Under the pieces are notes generated by a model. The model searched no databases and was not told the DNA's origin. It worked only from the letters and a program-made list of their open reading frames with translations. A stretch of DNA of 63,166 nucleotides, counting the filler, from Collodictyon triciliatum (lineage: Eukaryota), in the NCBI GenBank assembly GCA_043381765.1. It is 4 parts of 4 records of this genome, joined end to end, with 100 filler letters (N's around TTAATTAATTAA, not from the genome) between each part and the next. Parts side by side here need not be neighbours in the genome. Positions count along the whole stretch, not along the records: positions 21,982 to 43,855 come from JBHJMP010001169.1; 3 more parts are not named here. One strand, given 5' to 3'. Of this stretch, positions 5,694 through 60,420 are shown in pieces; position 1 is the first letter of the stretch, and each line of letters starts with the position of its first letter. Both the position numbers and the translations under genes were made by a program.

Positions 5694-6061
5694 NNNNNNN
5701 NNNNNNNNNNNNNNNNNNNNNNNNNNNNNNNNNNNNNNNNNNNNNNNNNNNNNNNNNNNNNNNNNNNNNNNNNNNNNNNNNNNNNNNNNNNNNNNNNNNN
5801 NNNNNNNNNNNNNNNNNNNNNNNNNNNNNNNNNNNNNNNNNNNNNNNNNNNNNNNNNNNNNNNNNNNNNNNNNNNNNNNNNNNNNNNNNNNNNNNNNNNN
5901 NNNNNNNNNNNNNNNNNNNNNNNNNNNNNNNNNNNNNNNNNNNNNNNNNNNNNNNNNNNNNNNNNNNNNNNNNNNNNNNNNNNNNNNNNNNNNNNNNNNN
6001 NNNNNNNNNNNNNNNNNNNNNNNNNNNNNNNNNNNNNNNNNNNNNNNNNNNNNNNNNNNNN
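5694..6061. other. Scaffold gap (N run)
   Basis: Run of N flanked by homopolymers. Confidence 0.99.
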
Positions 6062-6131: not shown

Positions 6132-12360
<6,229 letters not shown>

Positions 12361-28741: not shown

Positions 28742-29155
28742 ATGAGAAACTCGACTACATTAGAAAGTAAGATACTTGCCAGAATTATCCGCAAGAAATC
28801 TAACGTATTTCTACGGGATGACTTTCTAGATTTGGGCGGATACGATCAAGTAGGCAGAGCGTTAAAGCATCTGGCTGAAAAAGGAAAGTTAGTCAGGATT
28901 GGTTATGGCCTCTATGCAAAGGCTAAAATTTCTTCTTTAAATGGTGAAATAGTACCTACTGCACCGTTACCTAAACTTGGTAAAGAGGCTTTGAATCGAC
29001 TAAAAGTAGAAACAGCTCCCACAAAGGCCGAACTGGCATATAGAGAAGGGCGATCAACCCAAGTGCCAACTGGCCGCATGATAGCCGTAAAAGGGCGTAT
29101 TTGCCGTAAAATTGGCTATAAAGGAGCATATATAGCATATGAGCATGTCTCTTAA
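28742..29155 (+). CDS. AbiEi-like antitoxin (DUF6088-type wHTH)
   Basis: VFLRDDFLDLGGYDQVGRALKHL..KGKLVRIGYGLYAK and STQVP motifs; overlaps the downstream toxin gene. Confidence 0.85.
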   Translation: MRNSTTLESKILARIIRKKSNVFLRDDFLDLGGYDQVGRALKHLAEKGKLVRIGYGLYAKAKISSLNGEIVPTAPLPKLGKEALNRLKVETAPTKAELAYREGRSTQVPTGRMIAVKGRICRKIGYKGAYIAYEHVS

Positions 29156-30056
29156 TAGAAAATTACTTAAAGAAGTAGCATTAGTAAAACCAGGAATCAG
29201 CGAAGCTTTTATAGAAAAAGATTGGTTTGTAACTAAAGTAATCAAAATACTAGCTGAACATCAGTATCTTGATTACACAATAGTATTTACAGGCGGGACT
29301 TCTCTTTCCAAAGCACATAAATTAATTGAGCGATTTTCTGAGGATATAGATTTTAGGCTGATAGCCCCAAGCATTGAAGGGGAGGGGGTATCCAAGGTTA
29401 GAAAAGCTTTATCCGATTTCAAAACCCATGTAACCAGCTTACTTAAGAGAGAATTTGAAATTTTGAAAGTTGATGCCAGAGATAATAACCGGTATATAAT
29501 GATAAATCTGGGTTATCCTAGTGTATGTGAGCCTGCCGAAGTGTTGCGACCTCATATAAAGCTTGAATTTACGCTTTCCAAGCTTCAACTCCCCAGTATT
29601 GAATTGCCTATTTCCTCATTCATAAATGAGGAAACCAAGCAAGCCCCTGAAGTTGCTAAAATACCCTGTATAAACCCAGTTGAAAATGCTGCTGATAAAC
29701 TTAGTGCCCTAGTTTGGCGAATACCTTCGAGAGTAAGGGAAAAAAATGATAAGCAACCAGATGTAGTCAGGCATTTGCATGATCTGGCGAAACTAAGCGA
29801 TTACACAATTAAAAATCCACAATTTATAGAATTGGCTAAAAGTACGATAGAACAAGACAGTAACCGAGCTGATGAAATAAAAGATTTAAGTACAAAGGAA
29901 AAGCTTTCTAAAGTTATTGAGATTTTAGAAAGTGACCCAAAATACCCGCAAGAATACGATACTTATGTGAGGGAAATGGTATATAATCATGATATCCCTG
30001 TACCAAAGTTTGAGGAAGCTCTGGATAAACTTAAAGCTCTTATTGCGAGCGTTTAG
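29139..30056 (+). CDS. AbiEii/AbiGii-family nucleotidyltransferase toxin (type IV TA)
   Basis: IEKDWFV, FTGGTSLSKAHKLIERFSEDIDF, ADKLSAL, RHLHDL. Confidence 0.92.
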   Translation: MSMSLNRKLLKEVALVKPGISEAFIEKDWFVTKVIKILAEHQYLDYTIVFTGGTSLSKAHKLIERFSEDIDFRLIAPSIEGEGVSKVRKALSDFKTHVTSLLKREFEILKVDARDNNRYIMINLGYPSVCEPAEVLRPHIKLEFTLSKLQLPSIELPISSFINEETKQAPEVAKIPCINPVENAADKLSALVWRIPSRVREKNDKQPDVVRHLHDLAKLSDYTIKNPQFIELAKSTIEQDSNRADEIKDLSTKEKLSKVIEILESDPKYPQEYDTYVREMVYNHDIPVPKFEEALDKLKALIASV

Positions 30057-30093
30057 TAATATAAAGAACCACACATAGAACTGAGTTGATAAT

Positions 30094-31896
30094 TTACTCC
30101 CTAATATCTCTCTTAAATAACATCTTATCAGGTGTATCTTCTATCTCTAATATCTTTTTATCATTAAAGATAAAATTAAATTGTCCATATAAATCTCGCT
30201 TATTAGTAGGTACTTCAATTTCATCTTCACTAAAAGTAACAATATACTGAAAATCCCTACCTACTTCTGTTTTCAATAAAATATGTTTATTATAAATATA
30301 ATTAAGTAAATTAACCATTGTCTTATGAGACATATCATGAAAAACACCATCATGAATGAGAAAATCAGGCAACTCTCTTTTCTCATTAATAGCATTAAAA
30401 AAAATCATCAAATCATAAGTTAAGGTTTTTAGTACCTCTTGACCCATTGAACCAGATTTTGGAACATTAATATCAAGTTTAAATGGTAAAGTCGTCTTTT
30501 TACCTTTCACATTAATTAAAATATCAAAATAACCATTTGAATTCTTCTCATCTACAAAAATTGCTGAATTCAGAATTTCCATAAAAAGTGATCTTAACTT
30601 ATTCAGCGATTGTTGTACTTGCTGTAAGTCTTGTATAACATCTCTTCTTACTTCGCTTAACTCAATATCTTTTGTAGCAATAGTCTCATTGTATTGGTCA
30701 ATTTGTAATAGCATTTGGCTTTGTCTTTCTAGTGAAGATTTTTCTAGAATCAAAGCTTCATAAGTATTTTCCAATCTACTCAATATACCTTTTTCACTGA
30801 CTTGCTTCATGATGTTACTTCTTTGAAGTTCTAAATCAGTCAACTCAGTCAAAACTTTTTCAATTGCAACCTCAATTTCTGATTCCTTTTTAAATAAGAA
30901 CTTATTCCTATTCTCGATTATATCGTTCTTGAATTGTAAAATATCATCCAATGATTTTCTAACTAAGTTACCAAAATTCTCAATAACTTCATTGTAAATT
31001 TTTTGTATATGCTTAGTATCAATATCTACCTCAGATTGATAAGAAGCTTTAATATTTTTCAGTTTATTACTTAGAGTGTGAAAGCTCTTTGACTTCTCAT
31101 TGATTTTCTCAACTATCGAAGCTAACCTTGATTCTATCTCAATATGTGAATGTTTGAAATTATAGCTTTCAATTTGCTTTCGTAAAACCGATATATTATC
31201 TTCTATTTTTAATCTTTCTGTTTTATATTCTTCTAATGACTTGCCCGTTTCCTCTCGAAGTTTTTCTTCAAGCATTTTTTTAGTATTCGACTGACTATTA
31301 TATTCAATATTTACTTCATTAAACTTAAATAAATTACGAACAGGCAAACCAAGTAAATAAAAATTGAGAATAGATTTCTCAACAGCAGGAGCATTATAAT
31401 TAAAGAAGTTAGTAGCGTCTTTCCTAGTTTTACTTTGTATATCATCCTTAATATAAAACTGCATTAAAGTTCTATATCGATTACCCTCAATAAAAAGTTT
31501 GTTATCTTCTGCTGGAAAAAACAATCCCCAAAAAATATCTATTAATTCTTGTCTTGTATACTCAGATAACGAATAAGGAGTATAACCAAACTCTATTAGG
31601 TTATTATTTTCAAAACTTCTTCTAATAGTAGCTCTTTTATGGTTTATATCAAACTCTAAAGTTAAAGTATGAGCATTATCTCGAAGAAAGTCATATTTAC
31701 TCTTATTAAACTCCCGTTCTGCCGTATCACTTAATAACATATAATCAATCAATCTAATAAGTGATGACTTTCCTATTCCATTGATACCTCTGGCTTCTTT
31801 GTCAACAGAATATTTCCCATAGACAATATTTATGCCTGGATGAAAAATTACATTTTCAACTAGCAATCCTGTATCTGAAAATAGCCTGTGTAACAT
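30094..31896 (-). CDS. Lamassu/ABC-3C SMC-like ABC ATPase (DUF2326-type, LmuB-like)
   Basis: Walker A NGIGKSS, central coiled coil, signature-like GSMG, Walker B FLIHDG, FQYIVT. Confidence 0.85.
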   Translation of the reverse strand: MLHRLFSDTGLLVENVIFHPGINIVYGKYSVDKEARGINGIGKSSLIRLIDYMLLSDTAEREFNKSKYDFLRDNAHTLTLEFDINHKRATIRRSFENNNLIEFGYTPYSLSEYTRQELIDIFWGLFFPAEDNKLFIEGNRYRTLMQFYIKDDIQSKTRKDATNFFNYNAPAVEKSILNFYLLGLPVRNLFKFNEVNIEYNSQSNTKKMLEEKLREETGKSLEEYKTERLKIEDNISVLRKQIESYNFKHSHIEIESRLASIVEKINEKSKSFHTLSNKLKNIKASYQSEVDIDTKHIQKIYNEVIENFGNLVRKSLDDILQFKNDIIENRNKFLFKKESEIEVAIEKVLTELTDLELQRSNIMKQVSEKGILSRLENTYEALILEKSSLERQSQMLLQIDQYNETIATKDIELSEVRRDVIQDLQQVQQSLNKLRSLFMEILNSAIFVDEKNSNGYFDILINVKGKKTTLPFKLDINVPKSGSMGQEVLKTLTYDLMIFFNAINEKRELPDFLIHDGVFHDMSHKTMVNLLNYIYNKHILLKTEVGRDFQYIVTFSEDEIEVPTNKRDLYGQFNFIFNDKKILEIEDTPDKMLFKRDIRE

Positions 31897-32165
31897 TACT
31901 TTGACAATTCGTTTATTTCTTCCTTAGTCAGTAACTTGATTTTATATCCTTTATAATCAATTATACCCATCGAATACAAAAAAGTTATACAGTATATAAA
32001 AAGATCTGGTGTTCTTCTTGGATCTACCTTTAAAAAATCAGTCATCAGTTTTTCTAAAAGCACAAATGAATCTTTATGTTTTTTAGAGTTCAGAATCTCA
32101 ATCAATTCTGCTCCCAAAACCATTATATTCATTTTCATCTCACTTTCTGGATGCGGAATAATCAT
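31896..32165 (-). CDS. ABC-3C middle component (LmuC-like)
   Basis: 89 aa, MIIP start, C-terminal ITFLYSMGIID; coupled to neighbours by ATGA and TAATG overlaps. Confidence 0.8.
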   Translation of the reverse strand: MIIPHPESEMKMNIMVLGAELIEILNSKKHKDSFVLLEKLMTDFLKVDPRRTPDLFIYCITFLYSMGIIDYKGYKIKLLTKEEINELSK

Positions 32166-33085
32166 ACACTTGCATTTTCTGGTTTAATAGGTTTTGTTCC
32201 AATCATACACTGCTCAAAACAATAAACTAATAACGCCTTCGTATAATATTCAAAATCATCGTCTTGTGCATTAGCATAAGTGGTTTGATAAGCTTCTACC
32301 AATGATGCTACTTTATCTTTGAAGCTCCCTGCATACTGATTAAAATTCTTTTTGATTCTCATCTTAATAGAATTTATTTCTTCTGATTCATATGTAGAGA
32401 ACGCGTCCTTTATCTTATTTAATGTTCCATCTATTACAAATTCTTCATATTCTTCTAAAGCTAGATTTCTATCTTCTTCAGAATAGTTAAGTTGAATTTT
32501 ATCTTCTATGTCTATCCTATTCTTATAAGTTATATTTTCACTAACCACACCTACACCTCGTATTAAATCATCAAGTATTGTCTTTATATAATCAAAAATC
32601 ATGAGATCTTTACTAACGCCTAAATACTCACCTAAAAGTCGAATTTTTCTATTGCTGAATTCAGTTTCAATATAGTGAATTATTTGCTCAATTCCATGTA
32701 CTTTTACTGAGCAATTATGACCTTTCTTCTTAGCTTTTTCTATTAGGTTATCACAATATTTTATCTGGGCAGGCGCTAGCGAATTATTATAATATATTCG
32801 CCAATTACTATGTTTATCAACCCACTTATTTAAATACATATCGAAATCTTCATCAGCTTTCTTTTTGTATTTAGTTTCATCATAAGTATCAGGGCCATAA
32901 GAGGCAACTACTGTATTACTGACTAATATTATTCCATCAGCTCCATCATCTTTTCTTTCCCTTGTACAGTAGTAATCATTTTGCCCGTATCTCACTAAAT
33001 GCATTTTATTTACAAAGGCTTCGAACTCGAAACCTCTCTTTGATTTAATCTGAATTTCAAATGCTGCCTTTAGTGTTCTATCCAT
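32162..33085 (-). CDS. ABC-3C/Lamassu effector (LmuA-like): restriction-endonuclease-like N-domain plus C-terminal domain
   Basis: GFEFEAFV...DDGADG...SYGP...K..DF; C-terminal IEDKIQLN and LVYCFEQCMIG typical of ABC-3C C-terminal domains. Confidence 0.78.
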   Translation of the reverse strand: MDRTLKAAFEIQIKSKRGFEFEAFVNKMHLVRYGQNDYYCTRERKDDGADGIILVSNTVVASYGPDTYDETKYKKKADEDFDMYLNKWVDKHSNWRIYYNNSLAPAQIKYCDNLIEKAKKKGHNCSVKVHGIEQIIHYIETEFSNRKIRLLGEYLGVSKDLMIFDYIKTILDDLIRGVGVVSENITYKNRIDIEDKIQLNYSEEDRNLALEEYEEFVIDGTLNKIKDAFSTYESEEINSIKMRIKKNFNQYAGSFKDKVASLVEAYQTTYANAQDDDFEYYTKALLVYCFEQCMIGTKPIKPENASV

Positions 33086-33176
33086 TTTTAATTACTCTTT
33101 TTAAATGAGAATATATGGTCGCCTCAAAGCAAAATATTAATCAATTGGCTATCAACAACTTAGTATATAAATAAAA

Positions 33177-33833
33177 TTATTCGACTAATCTACTGATTGT
33201 TTTTTTTGTAAATAACTTGCCATTTGCAGTTCTGAAGCCATTTTCGTTAAGATGAAATGATATCTGACTTAAGCTCATACCTTTTTCTCGGCAAACACGG
33301 ATTAGAGCGGTAGCCCGTTGATTGTTTTGGTTTGCTTTAGCCTTACTACTTCTTGCCGCTCCGCCTGCCAGACGACCTTCTTGGGTTAAATTTGATAGGC
33401 TACCAAGTTTTGCCCCTTGCTTCTTCTTTGCTAGAAGAGCCTGACGGGTACGGATACTGATAAGCTCCCGTTCTCGTTGTGCGATCCCGGCATAAATAGA
33501 AAGGGTCAATGCGTCAGTAGTTGGCAGATCACAGCTTTTAAAAAGAGACCCAAGCTGTTTTTGTATTTTGAAGATATGTTCTACATCCCGGCTCAAGCGG
33601 TCGAGCTTGGCCACCACTAAAATACATTTATTGGACTGAGCAAAGTGGATAGCTTCTCTAAGGATCGGACGGTTTTCTATATCCTTACCGCTTTCAGTCT
33701 CAATAAACTCTTTTATGACATCAGCATGGTCGATTTGGGCATAGTACTCTATGATCGCTTTCTGAGCGTCAAACGATAAGCCGCTGCGTTCCTGGCCTTT
33801 GGTGCTGACACGGATATAGGAAATGTACTTCAT
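33177..33833 (-). CDS. Serine recombinase (resolvase family)
   Basis: YIRVST, ETESG, RPIL, VAKLDRLSRD, ERELISIRT, C-terminal HTH. ATG at 33833. Confidence 0.93.
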   Translation of the reverse strand: MKYISYIRVSTKGQERSGLSFDAQKAIIEYYAQIDHADVIKEFIETESGKDIENRPILREAIHFAQSNKCILVVAKLDRLSRDVEHIFKIQKQLGSLFKSCDLPTTDALTLSIYAGIAQRERELISIRTRQALLAKKKQGAKLGSLSNLTQEGRLAGGAARSSKAKANQNNQRATALIRVCREKGMSLSQISFHLNENGFRTANGKLFTKKTISRLVE

Positions 33834-33852
33834 TGCGGCAATATAATACAAA

Positions 33853-33947
33853 GGTGGCAAAGCTGCAACGCTCGTTCCTGTTTTGTCACCCTTCTAAATT
33901 TAAAACAAAAGTTACCAGTCTGCAACGGTCGTCCCTGGTTTGTAACC
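33853..33947. promoter_or_regulatory. res-like site: two related imperfect palindromes upstream of the resolvase
   Basis: CTGCAACGCTCGTTCCTGTTTTGTCACC (33863-33890) and CTGCAACGGTCGTCCCTGGTTTGTAACC (33920-33947), 57 bp apart. Confidence 0.65.
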
Positions 33948-34100
33948 TTATTTCTAACTTTTTTTCAGGTGGCAATCAATTATTAATAATCAGTCCTTAT
34001 GGTATTTCTCCCTAGTTTAATACTTTTAGAAAGTGGTTAGTAATTAATATATCAATACGTCATTAGAAAAATAGATGATATATACTCTTAATACTATTGT

Positions 34101-35081
34101 ATGAAGCAGTTAAATATACTACTTCTTATCTTTATAGGCAGTGCTGTTAATGTCTACGGATGGAGAATTGAAAAAAATGTTTTAATAATTGAGAAAGGAG
34201 ATAATCTAGCAGCAATTTCCCATTCCCTACTTGGTAGCAGTAATAAGTATAATTTAATTTGGAAAAGATGCATTGATACTTTAATAAGTAAAGATCCAAA
34301 TTTAATTCATGAAGGAATGAGGTTCTCTATTGACTCACTGGCAGTCAATAAAAGTACGCCATCTTCATCAACACATATTATTATTTATGAGCCAAAACCA
34401 GAAGAAGAATCTCATTTTTGGGATGCAGTTACAGCAGTTATTACATTGTTAAGTGTAATTCTTGCAGCTATTCTAGCGGATTATTATTTTAACAGAAATG
34501 AAAGAAGAAAAATTGCTTTCGATTTATTTTCAGAATTCAATGCTGCTGAAATGCATTCTCATAGGGTAAGAGCAGATGGTGTGCTGGCAAAAAATTTAGT
34601 ATTAGAAAAAGAACTAGAAAATTTTACTAGCGACGAAAAAAAGGTGCATCCTGAATATTTTCGAGATTTTGACGAATTGGATTCAAAACAAATTGAAGAT
34701 AAAAGGTCTTTATATATGGTTCTTAATTTTTACAAGAGAATTGAATTACTCAGAATTGCTAAAAGAATTGACACTACTTTAATTCCCATTTTGTTTGGGG
34801 AGATATTTAATTATTGGTGGGATCATTGCTTCAATAAATATGGAGTAAATAGCGATTGGGAAGTTTTTAAATTAGTTAGAAGCCTCAATACATGGCTTAA
34901 CACTAAAGCTACTGATAATCAAAAAGAATATTGGAAAAAAGCTAACCAATATACATCACCTAAACTAGTAAAACCTCATAAAGAAGCGATAAATATTAAA
35001 TTAAATTTAGAAGAGATTGATACACATATCAAAACTATTGTAAAAGAGATATTAAGTCAAAAAAAACAAAAAAATAATTAG
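34101..35081 (+). CDS. Signal peptide-LysM-like-TM-cytoplasmic domain (DUF4760-like) protein
   Basis: IEKGDNLAAIS...DPNLIHEGMRFSI (LysM pattern), TM FWDAVTAVITLLSVILAAILA, then helical domain with VLNFYKRI. Confidence 0.65.
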   Translation: MKQLNILLLIFIGSAVNVYGWRIEKNVLIIEKGDNLAAISHSLLGSSNKYNLIWKRCIDTLISKDPNLIHEGMRFSIDSLAVNKSTPSSSTHIIIYEPKPEEESHFWDAVTAVITLLSVILAAILADYYFNRNERRKIAFDLFSEFNAAEMHSHRVRADGVLAKNLVLEKELENFTSDEKKVHPEYFRDFDELDSKQIEDKRSLYMVLNFYKRIELLRIAKRIDTTLIPILFGEIFNYWWDHCFNKYGVNSDWEVFKLVRSLNTWLNTKATDNQKEYWKKANQYTSPKLVKPHKEAINIKLNLEEIDTHIKTIVKEILSQKKQKNN

Positions 35082-35127
35082 TTTTTTATAATTTTTACAA
35101 TATATAATAAATTTTTAGTAAATTAAA

Positions 35128-35922
35128 TCAGATATTTTGGGATGATCGTTTATTACGCTTAGGTTTCACAATAGGTTTATAATTTGAAGGTTCTTCGCTG
35201 TTTAATTCTTTAAATAATGCATACATTTCTTTTTCTCCTTTACATATTTCTTTTTTTAATGAAATAACTGGCTTATAATATCCTTCACTCATCTTAATAA
35301 AAAAACTATTATCCGATTGGTGGAAAATAAAATGCTTTTCTAAAATATTACCATAACTTCTTATGAATGTTATCATTAAGCCTTTAACTAATTTTTTATT
35401 AATTAAATTTTGGTCATAAAGCCTTGCGACAGCATTTAATAAGTCATAAACTGCTTCATATGTATAATAATCATCTTGATTTTTTTCATATAATTTTTTT
35501 AAATCTATTTTATGTTTATCGGCTTTTTGCTCGTTTAGAATTTGCCAGAATCTACGTCTTGAACTTAACATATAGTCAGTATTCCAGTATTCATAAATTT
35601 TAAAGAATGTAGACCTTTTTTCAGCTTCGGTATTAAATTTTATCGGAAGATAAATTGCTAGAGCTGATATTAAAAGTGCCAAAATGGCAATTTTAGTAGG
35701 GTTATCTATATCTTCATCAATTTCTTTAAATCTCAAATAATCGTCTTTATGCTGTTTAATATATAAAATCGAGTCTTTTCTGGCAGCTTTGGAAGATTCT
35801 AAAGAATCAATAGGAGTAACTATTATTAATTCCCGGCTTGTCTGTTTTAAGCTATTAGGCTTTTGCCCAATAGTTTCGATCGTTATTAAATAAAAAACAA
35901 AAACAATTAATAACCTTGTCAT
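35128..35922 (-). CDS. Signal peptide-TM-cytoplasmic domain (DUF4760-like) protein
   Basis: Signal MTRLLIVFVFYLI, TM IAILALLISALAIYL, then KRSTFFKIYEYWN..M..SR. ATG at 35922. Confidence 0.6.
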   Translation of the reverse strand: MTRLLIVFVFYLITIETIGQKPNSLKQTSRELIIVTPIDSLESSKAARKDSILYIKQHKDDYLRFKEIDEDIDNPTKIAILALLISALAIYLPIKFNTEAEKRSTFFKIYEYWNTDYMLSSRRRFWQILNEQKADKHKIDLKKLYEKNQDDYYTYEAVYDLLNAVARLYDQNLINKKLVKGLMITFIRSYGNILEKHFIFHQSDNSFFIKMSEGYYKPVISLKKEICKGEKEMYALFKELNSEEPSNYKPIVKPKRNKRSSQNI

Positions 35923-35933
35923 ATATATATATA

Positions 35934-37601
35934 TCAAAGTCTAATACCTTTAAATAATAAATATGTTTTGTTTAAAATTTTATCTTCACTAGTAACAGAA
36001 AAATGCCGACTTGCGTTAAAACCAAAACGTTCAAAAGTTAATTGATATCTTTTCTTTTCATTAGGAGGTACAATAATACCGCCTTCAAAAGTTTGATTCT
36101 TTTTTAAATTAATTATTTCAATACTGTCACTTAAAGCAATTCCTGTGAAATACTTCAGTACTCTTGCCGAAGTTTTTCTTGCTTCAATTTTTATTGATCG
36201 TTGGTCATCTGGTAATAAAAATGGGAATTTTAATGTATCACTGCTATTATTACTTACTTCAAAGGTAAGTAATGTCGAGAATAGCTTTCCTTCTATAGAC
36301 ATCAACTCAAATTCAGTATCATTAGGAGCTACAGATGATTTAAGTTCTATAGTGTCTGAGCTATATTTTGATAATTCGTATGCACCATAGGCAATTAAAA
36401 TAATAAAACAACAAAATGAACCAAATGTATAAAAAGCAATTAAAAGGTTTTCCATTAAGGTGTTATTTGTCTTAGCTTTACTTGATTTATTACTCCTTTT
36501 TATATCATAATTAGTTGAAAATTTTTTTTTATTATAATTTTCTATCTTCGCCTTGGGTACCATTTCAGCAGAACCAAGTACAGGTTTAATCTGCGACTCA
36601 GTTTCATTACTAACATTTTCAGGGAATGATGCGATATTAAATGTTTCTGAATTCTGAAAAACACTTTCTGCAATATCAATGCCTGTATTTTCAGTGTTTT
36701 TACTCTCTATAATTTTCTTTTGCTTCATCAAATACGACATATCATATTCATTATCAACCATATCCAGTACAGTATCTCGAATTTTTCTGATAATCGCGAA
36801 TTCTTCAACCATTAAGCAAAATCCACTAAATGCCAAACAGAGGCTGCTAAATGCATGGCAGCCAACTAAAATGATTAATGGAATTAGTATTGCGCTTATT
36901 CCATCTTCAAAACTTATATCAGATAAGAAGTCACGAATTAAATAAACTGTCGAAAAACCAAATGCAAATATCGCCGCTATTATACCTATAGGAATTAATC
37001 CATTTAGTAATTGTTTAATTATAAACTCTCTCGGCTCAAAATAAGCCCTGATGAGTTGCTCATCTACTTTATGACCAAAAAATTTTGTCCCAATTTTTTC
37101 TGCATATTTATCTTTTTCAATTGAGTCCCCTCTATAATATGAGTACTTATAAACATCGTTTTCTGAGTATGAATAAATTTGTTTAAAATGCTTATATGCT
37201 TTTGATAATGTTTTTATTAGTGATATTGAAAAGCTATTCCAAGGAAGTAATAGAATCAAGACAGTCACTATAGCCATGTGCAGACGTTCATCTTTTATCT
37301 TTTCTATCTCAGTAGGTTCTTTATAGTAACTGGGTATATCATCCAGATTAACCAAGAAATAAATAACAGAGAAACAAATATATATATAAAAACTTACTGA
37401 AATAATTGTTGCTGCCGGTGAAAAAGCCCGTTCTCCCATATTTTCCCGTAGCCGTAAACGGGCAGGTATGGCAGCTGCACTTACACCCGAATAAAAAAAT
37501 GTTACCAGGCTATGGATAAACCCGGTTCCTTTGCCATTAAAGCTGTAAAGACCACTGGCAGCATTTAAGCTATCAACTTTATTGAAAGAACCTTGAAGCA
37601 T
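35934..37601 (-). CDS. Polytopic membrane protein with C-terminal extracytoplasmic beta-rich domain
   Basis: Several TM segments in the N-terminal ~270 aa, a linker, another TM, then a beta-rich tail. Starts 14 nt downstream of the coupling ATPase gene. Confidence 0.75.
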   Translation of the reverse strand: MLQGSFNKVDSLNAASGLYSFNGKGTGFIHSLVTFFYSGVSAAAIPARLRLRENMGERAFSPAATIISVSFYIYICFSVIYFLVNLDDIPSYYKEPTEIEKIKDERLHMAIVTVLILLLPWNSFSISLIKTLSKAYKHFKQIYSYSENDVYKYSYYRGDSIEKDKYAEKIGTKFFGHKVDEQLIRAYFEPREFIIKQLLNGLIPIGIIAAIFAFGFSTVYLIRDFLSDISFEDGISAILIPLIILVGCHAFSSLCLAFSGFCLMVEEFAIIRKIRDTVLDMVDNEYDMSYLMKQKKIIESKNTENTGIDIAESVFQNSETFNIASFPENVSNETESQIKPVLGSAEMVPKAKIENYNKKKFSTNYDIKRSNKSSKAKTNNTLMENLLIAFYTFGSFCCFIILIAYGAYELSKYSSDTIELKSSVAPNDTEFELMSIEGKLFSTLLTFEVSNNSSDTLKFPFLLPDDQRSIKIEARKTSARVLKYFTGIALSDSIEIINLKKNQTFEGGIIVPPNEKKRYQLTFERFGFNASRHFSVTSEDKILNKTYLLFKGIRL

Positions 37602-37615
37602 TGAAGCATTTGTTT

Positions 37616-39052
37616 TTAGATTTTCTGTGAAAATGCTCGTAGGGCAAAGTTTCTCTTATCAGCTCCCCAATCCTTCCCGGTAATCGTTACCACTGCCTCT
37701 ACTATGTAATTATTATCCTTACCGCCACTTTTAAGCTGTGTAAAAACCCTTGGCTCTACCTGCCAATTAAACTGCTGCGATAGCCCTGCTGATGTTTGTT
37801 GCCCTCCAATATTATTCATCGAAGAAACATTCTTATAGGATTGGCCGATGGTTTTAGCTGCCCATTCATTGGTCACGTAATCATTATTAGCATGAAATAT
37901 CTTGGTAGATAGGTTTCCAAGTAGGCTGTTTACCTTCGCTTCGGGGTTGTTACCTCCTAATACAGCATAATAGTTACTGATATTCTGGGTTAGAAATACC
38001 GTACAGGCCATACTGCTCCGGGCGGTCGTCTGAAACAGCATATCATACTCATTCACAAAATACTGGCTTTCATCCACCCATAAGAAAACAGGATTTGATG
38101 ATGAAGTTACTTTTCTCCGCTCGGTCGCCTGCTGCCAGACTAATTTAAAGATGCCTTGTGCATAAATACCAGCTTCCAGATACTTCTTTACTGGAAAATC
38201 TAAAATCACAATTTTACCTTCATGAGTAATTTCAGGCAGGATATTTAGCCCTTGGGCGAAGTGATCGGCAAGCAACCCGCTCAAGAAAGGCTCGGCTAAC
38301 CCTCTGAACATTTCCTGAATGGTTGTACGTGTTTCAGGATAGAGCCTGGGCATTTCCTCCATAAAATAGCTGTCTACCAAATAATAATCTCGTATGGAGC
38401 GCGAATCCCCCTCTTCAAGTAACGTATATGCTGTATGTAAGCAACGTAGACAATAGTTATCTTCGGCATGCTTTTTTACCCCTTCTTCGTCCAATTTACT
38501 AATAACATTTGCTTCTTCGGCATCCGGCATTGAAGCAACGATCTCGACCATATTGTAAATGCTAAGCTCTTCATGGGATAACTTGATTAAATCAATAACC
38601 CGGTTCAAACAGCGTTTTAATGATGCTTCCCAAAAGCGTTCTCCTTCTTTAGGTTCTCCGCCATTGATCCGCTGCCCAAGCTTGTATAGGTTCAGAAACA
38701 AAGTAGATAGGTTCGAGGTCAACCCGCCGCCTTCATCGGTACGGCTGCGTTCATACTCCAGCGGGTTAAAGAAATAATCTGAACCTTCCCTAAAGTGAAT
38801 AATGTCTTTAAGCCTGCCCGTTTGCTTCGCGTACTCGATCCAGGTCTCCGCTTCATCCGGCTTACCGCATAGCACAATGCCGCCAAAGCCATTCATTAAA
38901 AAGCTTTTGGCGATCCATTTTCCTGAACCGCTGGTTTTGCCTGACCCTATCCCTCCAAATATTTGTACCCCTCTGACCGCATCAACTACTTTAAACGATT
39001 CCATACCCGCTTGATCGAAGTGAAAAAGCGTTTTATTCAATATAGCTTCCAT
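37616..39052 (-). CDS. TraD/VirD4-like type IV coupling ATPase lacking an N-terminal membrane anchor
   Basis: Walker A GGIGSGKT near the N-terminus, FNPL, ERFW, Walker B LWVDESQ, ARS...LTQN, LLGNL. Likely ATG at 39052. Confidence 0.85.
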   Translation of the reverse strand: MEAILNKTLFHFDQAGMESFKVVDAVRGVQIFGGIGSGKTSGSGKWIAKSFLMNGFGGIVLCGKPDEAETWIEYAKQTGRLKDIIHFREGSDYFFNPLEYERSRTDEGGGLTSNLSTLFLNLYKLGQRINGGEPKEGERFWEASLKRCLNRVIDLIKLSHEELSIYNMVEIVASMPDAEEANVISKLDEEGVKKHAEDNYCLRCLHTAYTLLEEGDSRSIRDYYLVDSYFMEEMPRLYPETRTTIQEMFRGLAEPFLSGLLADHFAQGLNILPEITHEGKIVILDFPVKKYLEAGIYAQGIFKLVWQQATERRKVTSSSNPVFLWVDESQYFVNEYDMLFQTTARSSMACTVFLTQNISNYYAVLGGNNPEAKVNSLLGNLSTKIFHANNDYVTNEWAAKTIGQSYKNVSSMNNIGGQQTSAGLSQQFNWQVEPRVFTQLKSGGKDNNYIVEAVVTITGKDWGADKRNFALRAFSQKI

Positions 39053-39068
39053 AATAAGCAGTAATATA

Positions 39069-39380
39069 TTATTTACGTGGGCCTTTGGGTGGAGTTGGTG
39101 GTGGAGTCTTCGGTTTAATGCGCTCAGTAAACTTGGCCGGTTTCTGCTCAATTTTAGAAGTTGGTGCTTTAGGTTGCTGTTCTACTCTTGTAGCACCTGT
39201 TGCCGTTTTAGCTGCTACTTTGGGGACGTTTTCGCCGGGCATCGAAGTTGAAGCCGGCTTCAAATCACTAAGGCTTTTGTGTAAACCCTGCTTATTATGA
39301 TCGTCAAAATTAGCTTTAGAGCCTTTTACCTTATCTCGCCAAGTCGTTTTTGGTTCCTCCGGAGTTTTATTATTGCTCAT
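39069..39380 (-). CDS. Small basic, disordered K/P/T-rich protein
   Basis: 103-aa ORF ending PKTPPPTPPKGPRK, immediately upstream of the ATPase gene. Confidence 0.6.
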   Translation of the reverse strand: MSNNKTPEEPKTTWRDKVKGSKANFDDHNKQGLHKSLSDLKPASTSMPGENVPKVAAKTATGATRVEQQPKAPTSKIEQKPAKFTERIKPKTPPPTPPKGPRK

Positions 39381-39423
39381 AACGTACTATTTTAGTATAG
39401 TGAAAGAAAGAGAAGAGTGTACT

Positions 39424-39804
39424 ATGTTGATGGACAGCGATTTATTGCCAATATATGAAAAAGCATTGAATAATGATCCTGAAGCTATTTTAAAATTTGC
39501 TGAAATCCTTCAAAATGGAAAAGGTATCATTAATGACGGTTATAAAGCTGCCGAATGGTACGAAAAGCTTCTTTCATTTAAAAAGAAATTCAACTTTGTA
39601 GATTACGCACTATTATATTATTGGGGAGCTATTGCGGCCTGGAATCGTAAAGAAACTAAGTTGGCACTCAAACGCCTAAAGAAATCATATATCCTTTTCT
39701 GTGAAAAATATCCAGATCAGGACGAACTGGAAGATGAACTGAATGACCATAAATTTTATTCATGGTATGGCTATATGGCCATCAATAAAGATTTTCATAA
39801 ATAG
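39424..39804 (+). CDS. Sel1/TPR-like small protein
   Basis: ALNNDPEAILKFAEILQNGKGIINDGYKAAEWYEK matches a Sel1 repeat. ATG at 39424. Confidence 0.65.
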   Translation: MLMDSDLLPIYEKALNNDPEAILKFAEILQNGKGIINDGYKAAEWYEKLLSFKKKFNFVDYALLYYWGAIAAWNRKETKLALKRLKKSYILFCEKYPDQDELEDELNDHKFYSWYGYMAINKDFHK

Positions 39805-40006
39805 CCATACCATTCTCTCATTAACGCATTAAATATTTCCCTGGCCGACTCTACGGCATTTTGTAGCGTTGCTACATTTCAAAACTTAACCTTAGCCCTC
39901 TAAGGGAAGATGTCTGTGTAAATCTATAAAAACTTTCTTTATCTTTACGGTTGTGTCTGCTATTTATTTTTGTAACTGATAGTTGTTACCGCTTAACCGA
40001 TTTTTC

Positions 40007-42877
40007 ATGCTGAGAATCACTCCAAATAACTCTGCCGATGGTGCCGCCCGTTACTATGATGAAGGACTGGCCCGACAGGATTATTATGCTGAAAAAGGAG
40101 AAATAATTGGACGATGGGGGGGCAAAGCCGCTGAAAATTTAAATCTTTCTCACCAGATCAATCGGGACGATTTTGTTGCTTTATGCAATAATATCAACCC
40201 TGAAACAGGAGAGCGGCTTACAGCACGTAACAATGAAACAAGAACCGTTGGGTATGATTTTACTTTCAGCGTTCCCAAATCAATTTCTATCGCCTATGGC
40301 ATAACGGGGGATGAAAAAATCCTCGAAGCCTTCCGGGCTTCGGTCAGTGATACCATGAAGCACCTGGAAATGGATGCGGCCACCAGAGTTAGAAAAAACG
40401 GGCTGGACGAAAACCGCCAAACGGGTAATCTTGCGTGGGCGGAATTCATTCACACTACATCAAGACCGATAGACGGGATACCTGACCCACATCTGCACGC
40501 CCATTGTTTTACCTTCAATGCGACCTATGACCCGCAGGAACAGCAATGGAAGGCCGGGCAATTTCGGGACCTGAAAGCAAATGCCCCTTACTACGAAGCC
40601 TATTTTAATTCCCTGCTGGCCGCAAACCTGCAAAAAGCGGGGTTTGAGCCGGAACGTAACAGAATCAACTTTGAACTCGCCGGGTTCTCGCGAAATACCA
40701 TTGAGAAATTTTCCAATCGAACACAGGAGATTGAAAAACTGGCCGAGGAAAAAGGCATTACCAATGCAAAAACCCTCGATGGCCTTGGAGCCAGAACAAG
40801 GGAGTTCAAAAATAAAGGGTTTTCTAACGAGCAACTAAGAGAAATCTGGATAAACAGGATCACAGAAGGGGATGATGAAAAAAAATTTTCCGGCTTCGCC
40901 GGAAAGGGGTTTGCTGATGAAAAGAAAAAAGAAGGTGTTGAGTTGTTAGAGGATAAAAAGCTTACTCCTGATGAATGTATTGACCATGCACTTTCTCATT
41001 GTCTGGAACGAAAATCAGTTGTTCAGGACAAACAACTGCTTACCGAAGCCTATAAAAGGGGATTTACCTCCTTTGCTCCGGATGAGATCAAAAAAGCGTA
41101 TCAAAATAGAACAGACTTGATTCATGGGCAGCACGAATCGAATCATTTTGTAACAACCAAGGAAGCCATTGCCGAAGAAAACCACCTTATTAACGCCTGT
41201 ATTGAAACAAAAGGCCGTTTTAAGCCTCTCAATGATAATTATCTGTTCAAAAATCAAACACTCAACTTTGAACAGCGGAAAGCCATTACCCATACCCTCA
41301 ACTCAACAGATGGAATTATTGCCATTGAAGGGGGGGCCGGGACCGGTAAAACGACCCTGATGAGCGAAGTAAAGAATGGTATTGAGGAATCAGGCCGCAA
41401 AATATTTGCTTTTGCGCCTTCTTCAGAAGCATCCCGTGGGGTGCTGCGCGGTGAAGGATACCATGAAGCTGATACATTGGCTTCCCTGTTGGTTAATAAA
41501 CAACTTCAGGAGCAAACCAAAGGCGGGGTACTTTGGATTGATGAAGCCGGGATGGTAGGCAACAAGACCATGAACAGCCTCGTAAAACTGGCCAAAGCAA
41601 ACAATAACCGAATCATATTGACCGGTGATACCAAACAACACAACAGCGTAGAACGTGGAGATGCTTTCCGTACCATGCAGGAAAAAGGCGGTTTAAAAGC
41701 CGTTCGGGTAAATGAGGTGGTACGGCAGCAGAATGCCAAAGCCTACAAAGCCGCCATGGAAAATATCTCCAAAGGGGCTTTTGAAAAAGGATATGAACAG
41801 CTTGATAAAGCAGGTTCTATCCGGGAAATTGCCGATAAGGACCAACGGTTGAAAGAAATTGCCTCTGAATACCTACAGGGTATCTCAGAGCGAAAAGGCA
41901 AAGGCTTTAAAGAAGTGTTGGTGGTTGCCCCTACCCACAGGGAAGGAGAAATGGTAACAGACCAAATAAGGCAAACGCTCCGTTCTGCGGGTAAGATCGG
42001 GGAAACCGATCATAAACTAACCCGGCTGAAAAACCTGAACCTCACCGAAGCTGAACGGCGGGATTCTATACATTACCAAGCTGGCCAAATCGTAGAATTC
42101 AACCAAAATGTGAAAGGATTCAGGGCAGGTGAAAAAATCCACGTGCTGGGCCGGGATGAAAAAGGCAATGTGTTGGTAAAGAACGGAGAGAAAGAAATGG
42201 TGTTGCCCTCCAATGAAGCAGATAAATTTCAGGTGTACACGAAACAGGAAGTACCGTTTGCCGCAGGGGATAAGATCCGAATCACCAAAAACGGGAAAGC
42301 CCTGGAAGGGACAAAACTCAATAACGGCCAAATATATCACGTGGCCGGTTTTGATAAGACGGGCAATATCAAATTAAGTAACGGCACTACGTTAAATAAA
42401 GATTTTGGCCATTTTACGCATGGCTACGCTGTAACCTCGAATACTTCACAGGGCAAGACGGTAGATAAAGTGATCGTGGCGCAAAGCTCACACTCTTTCG
42501 GGGCTTCCACCAAAGAACAGTTCTATGTATCTGTTTCTAGGGGGAAAGAAGCCGTTTCGGTTTATACTGATAATAAACAGGAATTGCAAAACATCGTGTG
42601 CAACCGCAGTTCTGAACGGCTGGCCGCCAATTCCATTGCAGGACAGGAAAATAACCTACAGCAACAGGCCGTTTTAGTGAACCGTTTACAATCACTTAAA
42701 GAAGCATATGCAACATGGCGGGATAATGTAGCCAATATAAGCCGTAAAGCGGTTGAGCGTGTGGTAAGCAATGCGGCAGGCAAAGCAGCCAATACCCCTT
42801 TAACCACTCTTACACAGAACCAGAAACCTATTATCAACCAAAGCAATGGGCCTCAAAGAACAGCTCCAAAGAGATAA
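40007..42877 (+). CDS. MOBF (TrwC/TraI-type) relaxase-helicase
   Basis: Tyrosine pairs RYY and DYY, YDFTFSVPKS, H..SR...DPHLHAH; SF1B helicase motifs GGAGTGKT, IDEAGM, GDTKQH, HGYAVTS..SQGKTVD, FYVSVSRG. ATG at 40007. Confidence 0.96.
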   Translation: MLRITPNNSADGAARYYDEGLARQDYYAEKGEIIGRWGGKAAENLNLSHQINRDDFVALCNNINPETGERLTARNNETRTVGYDFTFSVPKSISIAYGITGDEKILEAFRASVSDTMKHLEMDAATRVRKNGLDENRQTGNLAWAEFIHTTSRPIDGIPDPHLHAHCFTFNATYDPQEQQWKAGQFRDLKANAPYYEAYFNSLLAANLQKAGFEPERNRINFELAGFSRNTIEKFSNRTQEIEKLAEEKGITNAKTLDGLGARTREFKNKGFSNEQLREIWINRITEGDDEKKFSGFAGKGFADEKKKEGVELLEDKKLTPDECIDHALSHCLERKSVVQDKQLLTEAYKRGFTSFAPDEIKKAYQNRTDLIHGQHESNHFVTTKEAIAEENHLINACIETKGRFKPLNDNYLFKNQTLNFEQRKAITHTLNSTDGIIAIEGGAGTGKTTLMSEVKNGIEESGRKIFAFAPSSEASRGVLRGEGYHEADTLASLLVNKQLQEQTKGGVLWIDEAGMVGNKTMNSLVKLAKANNNRIILTGDTKQHNSVERGDAFRTMQEKGGLKAVRVNEVVRQQNAKAYKAAMENISKGAFEKGYEQLDKAGSIREIADKDQRLKEIASEYLQGISERKGKGFKEVLVVAPTHREGEMVTDQIRQTLRSAGKIGETDHKLTRLKNLNLTEAERRDSIHYQAGQIVEFNQNVKGFRAGEKIHVLGRDEKGNVLVKNGEKEMVLPSNEADKFQVYTKQEVPFAAGDKIRITKNGKALEGTKLNNGQIYHVAGFDKTGNIKLSNGTTLNKDFGHFTHGYAVTSNTSQGKTVDKVIVAQSSHSFGASTKEQFYVSVSRGKEAVSVYTDNKQELQNIVCNRSSERLAANSIAGQENNLQQQAVLVNRLQSLKEAYATWRDNVANISRKAVERVVSNAAGKAANTPLTTLTQNQKPIINQSNGPQRTAPKR

Positions 42878-43262
42878 GGAAAAAATGTCAGCATTAGCAA
42901 AACCGCAACCGGTTTACAGGGATGAGGAAGAACAATCCGATGACAGCGGCAGTATTTTCTGGGGTAGAGAGAGATCATCCAACCGCCGGGCGGTGATGCT
43001 TGACCTGCATTTGAAAAATGGGGAGTATATTTCTTTACCATACTCCTACATGACCAAGATCAAATTTAACCCTTCGATTGGTTTAGAGCTTTACATTTCA
43101 GGAAATTACATCAAAATATCAGGGCGGAACCTGCATGAGATATATAATTATCTCTGCCGCCATGGCGTGACCTTTATCATGGCTAATCCCAATGATAAGG
43201 ATATGACGGATGAACAGCAAACCTATGTTAAGGATATTGAGGTAACTGAAAGTGATTCGTAA
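42846..43262 (+). CDS. Hypothetical protein coupled to the relaxase
   Basis: 138 aa, overlaps the relaxase 3' end by 32 nt; beta-rich core MLDLHLKNG...LPYSY...FNPS.G...ISGRNL. Confidence 0.75.
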   Translation: MGLKEQLQRDKEKMSALAKPQPVYRDEEEQSDDSGSIFWGRERSSNRRAVMLDLHLKNGEYISLPYSYMTKIKFNPSIGLELYISGNYIKISGRNLHEIYNYLCRHGVTFIMANPNDKDMTDEQQTYVKDIEVTESDS

Positions 43263-43301
43263 AGAAGCAGTGCTACATCTAAGAAACACTTACCTATCTC
43301 T

Positions 43302-43855
43302 TCATTTAGTGTAGTTACCCTGCCTTCCTTTTCGTTCTATTAAGCCTTCATACAAAAGATAGCGTAAATACTCCTTAGCCTCTATGTCAGATACGATAAA
43401 ATCAATTTTCTTTAAGATCGTAAATAAATCATGTAACGAATTTACTCGCTGATTTAACTCTTTGAGAATTTTATCAGAATATTGGCGTAGCTCGTTTTGC
43501 TTTAGATTTTTTACCTTATTTTCAATAAAAGATCTAACTTCATCAGGTGATTTTATTTCACCTATAGTTTTAGCATCCTCATACATTTCTTTTTCTCTTT
43601 CTACATAATTCGAAAGAGAAGCTAATTTTTCTATTGCCTTCTCCGGCGTTAAAGCATGGCTAATCGCAGAAAGGTCAGACCTTAAGTTACTAGGTTTAAT
43701 ATATATACCTTCTTCATTATCTTCTCCTTCACCATATACTATGGATGCTACACCAGAAAATCTCAAAGCTTCTCTCCTGATTTCATCATTTGAAAGCTCA
43801 ATCATGTATTTCATACTTCCTACGTTATCAATTAATCTTTGATCTATCTTTTCAA
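43302..43855 (-). CDS. Hypothetical protein, 3' part of the gene spanning the circle junction (see 21982-22787)
   Basis: Same reading frame through the 106-bp overlap. Confidence 0.85.
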
Positions 43856-43955
43856 NNNNNNNNNNNNNNNNNNNNNNNNNNNNNNNNNNNNNNNNNNNNT
43901 TAATTAATTAANNNNNNNNNNNNNNNNNNNNNNNNNNNNNNNNNNNNNNNNNNNN
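43856..43955. other. Artificial contig-joining spacer
   Basis: N44-TTAATTAATTAA (43900-43911)-N44. Confidence 0.97.
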
Positions 43956-53381: not shown

Positions 53382-53481
53382 NNNNNNNNNNNNNNNNNNN
53401 NNNNNNNNNNNNNNNNNNNNNNNNNTTAATTAATTAANNNNNNNNNNNNNNNNNNNNNNNNNNNNNNNNNNNNNNNNNNNN
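53382..53481. other. Artificial contig-joining spacer
   Basis: N44-TTAATTAATTAA (53426-53437)-N44. Confidence 0.97.

Positions 53482-54089: not shown

Positions 54090-60420
<6,331 letters not shown>

Follow-up and report, generated by a model that had tools for sequence, protein, structure and literature searches.

The stretch of DNA analysed here, hereafter called the window, is 63,166 nucleotides (nt) long and comes from the genome assembly GCA_043381765.1 of the eukaryote Collodictyon triciliatum. When its open reading frames (ORFs) were examined it was found that positions 35934-43262 carry a bacterial DNA transfer module that is made up of two divergent units (Table 1). The rightward unit consists of a 126-amino acid (aa) protein, a 178-nt spacer, a relaxase-helicase of the MOBF type and a small protein, p138, with a candidate origin of transfer (oriT) upstream of the relaxase gene. 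The leftward unit consists, in this order, of a basic 103-aa protein, an ATPase related to the type IV coupling proteins (T4CPs) and a 555-aa membrane protein with several transmembrane (TM) segments, which we call the membrane partner. A first-pass annotation of this DNA had described five genes in this region, and the ORF check of the window found all five where it had placed them.

Table 1. Coordinates of the transfer module and of the other features of the plasmid, counted along the window
Feature	Position	Strand	Remarks
Bacterial contig holding the module	21982..43854		closed circular plasmid, 21,768 bp, GC 36.2%; linker-bounded
Membrane partner, 555 aa	35934..37601	-	starts 15 nt after ATPase stop; about 5 TM segments
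T4CP-like ATPase, 478 aa	37616..39052	-	maximal ORF 37616-39151 starts at TTG 39151
Small basic, proline-rich protein, 103 aa	39069..39380	-	first gene of leftward unit
126-aa protein	39424..39804	+	upstream of relaxase; ORF open from TTG at 39373
Candidate oriT	39890..39917	+	inverted repeat and conserved core
MOBF relaxase-helicase (TrwC/TraI type)	40007..42877	+	ORF open from TTG at 39983
p138, 138 aa, beta-rich	42846..43262	+	overlaps relaxase 3' end by 32 nt
Toprim protein	22869-23840		plasmid backbone
Iteron-like direct repeats (n=5), core AAAACGTACCAAACTTCACGTGGTTTT	24000-24233		just upstream of RepA_C gene
RepA_C	24298-25242		plasmid backbone
ParA	25777-26469		plasmid backbone
AbiEi/AbiEii toxin-antitoxin pair	28742-30056		
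DUF2326 protein, 600 aa	30094-31896		adjoins AbiEi/AbiEii pair
Serine recombinase (resolvase)	33177-33860		
Membrane protein, 326 aa	34101-35081		DUF4760 match weak, sub-threshold
Membrane protein, 269 aa	35128-35937		no Pfam match

The module lies on a densely coding, bacterial contig that begins and ends with the same 105 nt, and because of these identical ends the contig is a closed circle. Since the contig closes, genes that are missing from it are not missing as an effect of truncation. The window contains 1,009 N in eight runs, and at 21882-21981, 43856-43955 and 53382-53481 the sequence TTAATTAATTAA is flanked on both sides by runs of 44 N. This sequence is a linker of the six-frame stop type, as used for the concatenation of contigs, and as the contigs are joined by such linkers the adjacent blocks of the window need not be physically linked. 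The earlier claim that the plasmid is closed is thus correct for the contig 21982-43854 and not for the whole 63-kb window, which is several contigs joined together; that the whole window might be a plasmid was ruled out by the same linkers. A eukaryotic island acquired by horizontal gene transfer was also ruled out because the bacterial block is bounded exactly by linkers and closes on itself. The plasmid sits between eukaryote-like contigs and its source is probably an associated or contaminating bacterium; the host of the module is probably a Spirosoma-like Bacteroidota bacterium.

The module was compared across 87 loci, namely the best 80 of 125 confirmed stretches, six loci from PLSDB and the circularised plasmid itself. 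The 125 stretches came from a pattern scan of a collection holding one genome per species, and all 87 loci were translated into six-frame ORFs and searched iteratively with the proteins of the window. By record title, the best 80 of the 125 stretches belong mostly to Bacteroidota (Saprospiraceae, Spirosomataceae, Chitinophagaceae and Flavobacteriales), with six from Verrucomicrobiota, three from Planctomycetota, one from Victivallales and a few metagenome-assembled genomes (MAGs) under other labels. The first-pass annotation had pointed to similar gene sets in Planctomycetota and Verrucomicrobiota, and the four families of ATPase, membrane partner, relaxase and p138 do co-occur there and in Bacteroidota as well.

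Canonical coupling proteins such as TrwB, TraD and VirD4 are N-terminally anchored in the membrane and feed a type IV secretion system (T4SS). When the ATPase of the module was aligned with 18 homologues its conserved start was found to be the ATG at 39052, and counted from this codon the Walker A motif GGIGSGKT occupies residues 33-40, which agrees with the distance of about 33 aa given earlier, and a Walker B-like LWVDES begins at residue 324. Both Walker motifs are invariant or nearly so in the 19 aligned members, as is expected of a P-loop nucleotide-binding domain (NBD), and between them lies an insert of about 200 residues with a conserved CxxC. The mean column identity of the alignment is 63%. 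Against TraG-D_C the ATPase scored 27 bits (cut-off 22) and this profile was matched by all 19 aligned members, and against TrwB_AAD_bind it scored 21.5 bits (cut-off 20.5) with 17 of the 19 members matching; T4SS-DNA_transf was matched by 2 of the 19, and against SXT_TraD of NCBIfam the score was only 19.5 bits, the cut-off being 366. Among solved structures the sole match was the T4CP DotL at an E-value of 0.06. As the matches to T4CP profiles are marginal and DotL is reached only at this E-value, we place the ATPase among the remote members of the coupling-protein superfamily. In the window ATPase a Kyte-Doolittle scan gave no hydrophobic segment, and in none of the 87 maximal ORFs of ATPase homologues was there an N-terminal TM segment of the kind that makes up the N-terminal transmembrane domain (TMD) of T4CPs; six of the 87 ORFs have one borderline internal hydrophobic segment each and one has a C-terminal fusion to four TM segments. 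Thus, the lack of an anchor reported in the first-pass annotation stands, and the search for a hidden anchor, the finding that was to count against it, turned up none. The family is large, with at least 1,559 proteins at E <= 0.001 among the 7,998 candidates that were scored, nearly all of them 470-550 aa long, and the best relative of the window ATPase is a Spirosoma terrae protein that is 91% identical.

When the DNA beside the ATPase gene was examined in the 87 loci, the membrane partner was detected by jackhmmer in 63, and with a hidden Markov model (HMM) built from 66 members it was found directly downstream of the ATPase gene on the same strand in 68, the gap between the two genes being 20 nt or less in 63 of these 68. 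The 19 remaining loci comprise three with a different small protein of at least two TM segments, one that is cut by the contig end and 15 with no such protein by the criteria used. Among these 15, L010 has a partner gene upstream of the ATPase gene, and L002 and L004 have a short hydrophobic protein that was scored as a single segment. In the one fusion mentioned above, the ATPase ORF of L083 (a Victivallales MAG, 9986-11818) is 610 aa long and runs into the four C-terminal TM segments, and this C-terminal domain did not match the partner HMM. It is an analogue of the partner rather than a proven homologue, and with one MAG contig to go by it could also be an artefact of assembly.

The membrane partner has a conserved N-terminal domain of four TM segments (about residues 25-300) that is followed by a lineage-specific extension, which in the AlphaFold2 (AF2) model is made up of a disordered linker, a fifth TM helix (380-412) and a C-terminal beta-sandwich. 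Over residues 30-300 the block means of the per-residue confidence score (pLDDT) are mostly 80-96, with dips to 54-73, and the model shows four long membrane helices together with amphipathic cytoplasmic helices. The extension is uncommon: the median length of the family is 299 aa, the typical member having about 300, and only 3 of the 68, including that of the window, reach 450 aa or more. The most conserved positions, in the numbering of the window protein, are R52/G56/R58, S154/G158, E189/P190 and D280/D283, and it is with these that the four motifs picked out by the first-pass annotation (RENMGERAF, YSYYRGDS, FEP and LDMVD) coincide. The sum of lysines and arginines is 6 in the N-terminal segment, 12 in the 131-192 loop, 18 in the segment after TM4 and 0 in the 224-232 loop, and because these counts fit the positive-inside pattern a topology with the N-terminus inside is predicted, from which it follows that all the conserved motifs would face the cytoplasm. 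A surface on which a cytoplasmic ATPase could dock would have to face this way, as these motifs are predicted to do.

The partner family could not be tied to any that has a name. Foldseek matches in the PDB, for example the FlaF soluble domain and YjhA, are beta-sandwich chains of 116-187 residues and are for this reason taken to concern the C-terminal sandwich only, and there was no helical membrane protein among the matches listed. No Pfam family was matched by more than one of the 26 partner members searched, and in the ESM Atlas the matches of the membrane partner were all below 0.9. The homologues in this study were obtained by iterative profile searches on the fetched loci; tblastn of the membrane partner against PLSDB gave no match at an E-value of 1e-5. 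In a profile search of 1.84 billion representatives, 2,657 clusters were found at E <= 0.001, and 1,570 at E <= 1e-10. The partner of Spirosoma terrae (L007:11444-13102) is 48% identical to that of the window overall, the adjacent ATPases being 91% identical, and since the first 60 residues are nearly the same most of this divergence lies further along the protein.

The relaxase profile matches begin at residue 9 of the ORF that is open from 39983, which is the ATG at 40007. The protein matches TrwC (PF08751) at an E-value of 4.9e-70 and AAA_30 at 2.6e-48, and scores 197.5 bits against the NCBIfam model NF041492 for MobF, where the cut-off is 100. It has paired tyrosines near the N-terminus and a DPHLHAH motif, and it combines a TrwC relaxase domain over threshold with a superfamily 1B helicase domain, the two features that define MOBF. 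Upstream of it lies the candidate oriT, an inverted repeat with the stem CCTTAG (39890-39895), N4, CTAAGG (39900-39905) that is 82 nt upstream of the relaxase ORF and is followed directly by the core GGAAGATGTCTGT. This hairpin-plus-core element is conserved, being present upstream of the MOBF gene in 27 of the 54 loci that have a full-length relaxase, and its stem shows compensatory changes, namely CCTAAA/TTTAGG (L080), CCTAAG/CTTAGG (L023) and CCTTAT/ATAAGG. In MOBF systems the nick site usually has a hairpin immediately on its 5' side, and the GTCT core of the candidate oriT may resemble the nick region of R388; the relaxase may nick within the hairpin-plus-core element, a position suggested by the sequence pattern. 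Across the 87 loci a relaxase is found within 10 kb of the ATPase in 71, of which 59 are MOBF and 12 are MobA/MobL (MOBQ), and in one further locus there is an annotated MOBP relaxase.

The small protein p138 was found in 64 of the 87 loci. Its mean pLDDT in the AF2 model is 83.6, with the 10-residue blocks between residues 51 and 130 averaging 92-97, and the fold has eight strands and two helices, so that the description of this protein as beta-rich is borne out by a model made mostly of strands. No PDB chain was matched at E <= 0.001, no Pfam family was matched by more than one of 22 p138 members, and the ESM Atlas gave unnamed clusters only, from Planctomycetota and Bacteroidota. Of the 67 ORFs of the p138 family, 63 are the next gene after a MOBF or MOBQ relaxase, and in L006 p138 also follows a MOBP relaxase. 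As p138 comes after the relaxase in loci with the ATPase whether this relaxase is MOBF, MOBQ or MOBP, we propose that it is an adaptor between relaxase and ATPase, a role suggested by synteny. The N-terminal tail of the window p138 has an 'FWG' motif, which is similar to the 'WFGR' motif of small proteins on the proteobacterial plasmids described below. The other two small proteins are less widespread. The 126-aa protein has no match in Pfam or NCBIfam and has homologues in 29 of the 87 loci, all of them Bacteroidota and in variable position; it is possibly a relaxosome accessory. The 103-aa protein at the head of the leftward unit is indeed small and basic as had been claimed, with 22 lysines and arginines, 10 aspartates and glutamates and 15 prolines, and it has no family match in Pfam or NCBIfam and homologues in only 5 of the 87 loci.

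In these 87 loci the partner gene follows the ATPase gene at once in 68, a relaxase is present in 71, and 63 of the 67 p138 ORFs come next after a relaxase gene. This linkage is strong, and the caveat of the first-pass annotation that the partner genes might have no conserved linkage falls away. When the neighbours of the module were clustered (all ORFs of at least 80 aa, shadow ORFs removed), the recurrent families were Toprim (32 loci), SSB (30), ParA (24), serine recombinase (22), ArdC (13), RadC (11) and tyrosine integrase (8), which are typical of plasmids, of integrated mobile elements and of the leading regions of transferred DNA. Among the neighbours in the 87 loci there was no recurrent large ATPase, nor any other recurrent family of the size expected for mating-pair formation (MPF).

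A tblastn search of PLSDB with the ATPase gave eight records, of which six were fetched. In Runella pSP2_3 (11.3 kb) the ATPase gene is divergent to those of MobF and p138 on a RepA/Toprim backbone like that of the window, and in the Planctomycetes plasmid pK2D_1 the genes of TraI and of a 133-aa relative of p138 are divergent to those of the ATPase and a 341-aa protein. In the plasmids of Acuticoccus, of Skermanella (two plasmids) and of Nitrosospira multiformis (plasmid 1) the ATPase is followed by a protein of 124-195 aa with TM segments. Four of the six fetched plasmids have a MOBQ or MOBP relaxase, and in three of these four a relative of p138 comes after it. In the proteobacterial plasmids L002, L004, L005 and L006 the 124-195-aa protein ends in a common 'LPxxLxxL' motif, and in L002 and L006 a small protein with a 'WFGR' motif comes before the ATPase. 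In PLSDB the MOB-suite typing of the eight plasmids with the ATPase is 'non-mobilizable' for five and 'conjugative' for one. The latter is the Nitrosospira plasmid, typed 'conjugative, MPF_T', and no MPF gene is annotated in the 11.3 kb fetched of its 18.9-kb record. We take these mobility calls to be typing artefacts of the T4CP-like ATPase family.

The plasmid itself has no T4SS genes. Among the 21 plasmid ORFs scanned, which are all those of at least 120 aa outside the relaxase gene and the 103-aa one, smaller ORFs not having been scanned exhaustively for accessories of the ribbon-helix-helix type, there was no VirB4, VirB6, VirB8-11, TraG-type or other MPF family. The combination of a VirB4-family ATPase and MPF genes that marks a self-transmissible plasmid is therefore lacking from these 21 ORFs. 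The absence of T4SS genes from the closed plasmid, as first described, extends to the other loci, as 86 of the 87 neighbourhoods have no VirB4-like gene: when the 87 loci were searched by phmmer with two VirB4 proteins of the Bacteroidetes type only one ORF was matched, L083:56-2893, which has a TraG P-loop domain by Pfam and lies 7 kb upstream of the ATPase. In the whole genomes of 15 Bacteroidota carriers, chosen out of the 80 loci because they were isolates or had long or complete assemblies, the Bacteroidetes VirB4 model TIGR03783 was found in seven, in each case either on a different contig from the module or at a distance of megabases from it, whereas in a class-wide background sample it was over the cut-off in 21 of 301 genomes (Fisher test of 7/15 against 21/300, odds ratio 11.6, p = 8e-5). 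In five Bacteroidota carrier genomes that were also searched with PF03135 there was no match, and PF12846 (AAA_10) gave only sub-threshold matches, to ORFs of 850-900 aa, in all five; as none was over the cut-off these ORFs were not counted as VirB4.

A probable explanation of these data, which we favour with some reserve, is that the module serves mobilisation and carries a coupling protein split between two genes that docks on the T4SS of a helper. The MOBF relaxase would nick the hairpin-plus-core oriT that lies shortly before the relaxase gene, and would remain on the 5' end. The relaxase-DNA complex would then be passed by p138 to the ATPase, and the overlap of the p138 and relaxase genes may mean that the two are translated jointly. 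The ATPase would be a motor of the T4CP family that lost, or never had, the N-terminal membrane domain, and its tether to the inner membrane would be the protein encoded next to it, the four-TM partner with its motifs on the predicted cytoplasmic face. Together, ATPase and partner would form a two-gene coupling protein that docks on the T4SS of a co-resident conjugative element and replaces its own coupling protein.

The hijacking of foreign T4SSs had been suggested in the first-pass annotation, and the enrichment of VirB4 among the Bacteroidota carriers, which fits helper dependence, lends it some support. Several observations weigh against it. According to main-text passages of a preprint on the Planctomycetes plasmidome (10.1101/2024.01.22.576637), of 83 chromosomes 21 carry MOBF relaxases, which are 'often' accompanied by a T4CP, and not one of the 83 has a complete MPF. 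The membership of the ATPase in the T4CPs rests on the marginal scores given above (27 and 21.5 bits, DotL at E 0.06). In Runella pSP2_3, the plasmid that is most closely related, the ATPase is shorter (441 aa) and no membrane partner lies beside it. In 8 of the 15 Bacteroidota carriers no TIGR03783 VirB4 was found, and none of five Verrucomicrobiota and Planctomycetota carriers, one of which is a complete chromosome of 3.9 Mb, had a VirB4 by PF03135 or PF19044. The enrichment itself may be inflated, since the carriers were chosen by hand, their genomes exceed those of the background sample in size, and no correction for relatedness was applied. Mobilisable elements are, however, commonly found in cells without a helper, and as many of the genomes are MAGs or drafts, the absence of VirB4 from a present host says little.

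The same absence is what would be expected if transfer were independent of any T4SS. A hexamer of the ATPase on the four-TM partner would then itself be the inner-membrane translocon for single-stranded DNA and form, with relaxase and p138, a minimal export apparatus, and the relaxase-DNA complex would leave the cell by a route without VirB4, such as another envelope machine or vesicles. No VirB4-family gene was found in 13 of the 20 carrier genomes searched, including all five from the Planctomycetota-Verrucomicrobiota-Chlamydiota (PVC) group, and the module is stable and widespread without MPF genes, as the 86 neighbourhoods and the 2,657 partner clusters indicate. The partner is also larger and more conserved than a simple anchor would require, and in the passages of the preprint already cited MOBF with T4CP is common in Planctomycetes while complete MPF is not found in the chromosomes (10.1101/2024.01.22.576637). 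We nevertheless regard such export as unlikely because no gene of the conserved set is able to span the periplasm and outer membrane of diderm hosts, because VirB4 is enriched among the Bacteroidota carriers, and because a helper that is absent from the current host, often a MAG or draft, is uninformative. For a stand-alone transfer system, which the first-pass annotation had offered as its other option, direct support was not obtained.

It is distinctly improbable that the ATPase-partner pair has a role other than export, in establishment or entry in the recipient, in exclusion or in plasmid maintenance, and is linked to relaxases only because all of them travel on mobile elements. The partner and p138 match no known family or fold and 15 of the 87 loci have no relaxase in the fetched DNA, as this explanation would allow, but at least six of these relaxase-less loci are cut at a contig end close to the ATPase. 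Moreover, the linkage is tight and involves relaxases of three MOB families, p138 bridges both units, and the ATPase matches T4CP profiles and nothing else. Plasmids that have a relaxase and a T4CP but no MPF are reportedly discussed in the literature on plasmid mobility as products of decay, yet it is very hard to believe that the module is all that is left, inert or vanishing, of a once conjugative plasmid after the loss of its MPF genes, given that all genes on the plasmid are intact, that 80 species-level genomes from at least three phyla share the set of four genes without MPF, and that the ATPase alignment and the oriT are so well conserved; this recurrence and conservation point to selection on the MPF-less configuration.

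The preferred reading, a split coupling protein that depends on a helper, is made up of ideas each of which has a precedent (PMC7434980, PMC5704250, in the sections concerned), so the concept is known, and in this sense the first-pass annotation went too far in calling the module an undescribed system. A subfamily of 'T4CP lacking TMD' that works with small membrane proteins is recognised in the relevant part of a T4CP review, the example being TraJ/TraI of pIP501 (PMC7434980); as here, a coupling ATPase without TMD is thought to be recruited by a membrane protein from a neighbouring gene. The likeness is by description only, and pIP501, a plasmid of Gram-positive bacteria, is self-transmissible and brings its own T4SS. 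The module described here has none, its hosts are diderm Bacteroidota and PVC bacteria, its partner is a conserved four-TM protein of about 300 aa, and its relaxases are MOBF or MOBQ. An anchor-less T4CP relative beside a membrane-protein gene is found in 68 of the 87 loci, and the plasmid has no T4SS operon. Similarly, the same part of the review describes how TraG of R27 (IncH) needs TraJ, a polytopic membrane protein from the adjacent gene, such partners having about 200 aa and up to five TM helices (PMC7434980). Unlike the window ATPase, to which it is again likened by description only, R27 TraG keeps its own TMD and is part of a complete conjugative system.

CloDF13 resembles the module in having a relaxase and a dedicated coupling protein, which replaces that of the helper, and no MPF (PMC7431656, PMC5704250, in the passages on this plasmid). 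It differs in that its relaxase is MOBC and its coupling protein MobB carries an essential TMD of three helices (as stated in PMC7431656, in the part concerned), whereas here the relaxase is MOBF, the ATPase has no anchor and the partner is a separate protein. Thus, of the features of the MOBC1/CloDF13 type, the plasmid shares the relaxase and T4CP without MPF and lacks the MOBC relaxase and the TMD-bearing T4CP. In the corresponding passages of a 2017 review of integrative mobilisable elements (IMEs), elements with their own VirD4-type coupling protein are said probably to replace that of the helper, the known mobilisable plasmids with their own coupling protein are said to encode MobC relaxases, and no IME known at that time encoded a MobF relaxase (PMC5704250). 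The MOBF and T4CP without MPF of Planctomycetes are like the set described here, and the plasmid pK2D_1 has the module; in the main-text passages of that preprint nothing is said of an absent anchor, of a membrane partner or of p138 proteins (10.1101/2024.01.22.576637). With the canonical T4CPs (TrwB of R388, TraD of F, VirD4 and DotL) the ATPase shares the P-loop NBD, the matches to TraG-D_C and TrwB_AAD_bind and the linkage to a relaxase, and it differs from them in having no N-terminal TMD, a length of about 480 aa and a very remote sequence relationship. What appears to be new is the combination of an anchor-less T4CP relative with a conserved four-TM partner, p138 and a MOBF or MOBQ relaxase on plasmids and integrated elements without MPF in Bacteroidota and PVC bacteria. 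Full-text searches of the literature found no description of this combination, although supplements, including that of the Planctomycetes preprint, may list the same T4CPs. The partner and p138 families and their distribution have not been described before.

The module is widespread in environmental Bacteroidota and in the PVC phyla, where conjugative gene flow is poorly understood, and two of its four core proteins, the partner and p138, belong to no named family. If the coupling protein is indeed split, it would offer a clean natural system in which to study the role of the T4CP membrane domain, because that domain is here a separate polypeptide, and plasmid typing tools that rely on T4CP and MPF profiles would mislabel such elements. 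If, on the other hand, carriers in phyla free of T4SS do transfer their DNA, a new route of DNA export would be in play, and export independent of a T4SS would account for the frequency of the module in those genomes of Planctomycetota, of Verrucomicrobiota and of many Bacteroidota where a T4SS cannot be detected.

The remainder of the plasmid is a backbone with accessory genes (Table 1). Single copies of the repeat with the AAAACGTACCAAACTTCACGTGGTTTT core also occur near the ParA gene, at 25298-25340 and 26604-26646, and these repeats are likely to be the replication origin and partition sites. The AbiEi/AbiEii pair and the DUF2326 gene lie together with a 307-aa protein without family match in the interval 28742-33085, which may be a small defence or stability island. 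The 326-aa and 269-aa membrane proteins did not recur in the other 86 loci; the gene of the latter abuts the stop codon of the membrane partner gene and may be in the same operon. One ORF of 417 aa spans the circular junction of the plasmid. Outside 21982-43854 the window has few long ORFs and runs of A or T up to 94 nt long, and besides the linkers there are N runs at 5694-6061 and 20412-20788. The flanking contigs carry gene fragments of eukaryotic type at 44689-45283, 51039-51587, 54157-54840 and 15313-16455, among them a Tyr/Ser-Thr protein kinase domain split over two frames in an intron-like manner, a PI3/PI4 kinase and a serine acetyltransferase, and also a SAM domain that is followed by a 21-nt tandem repeat.

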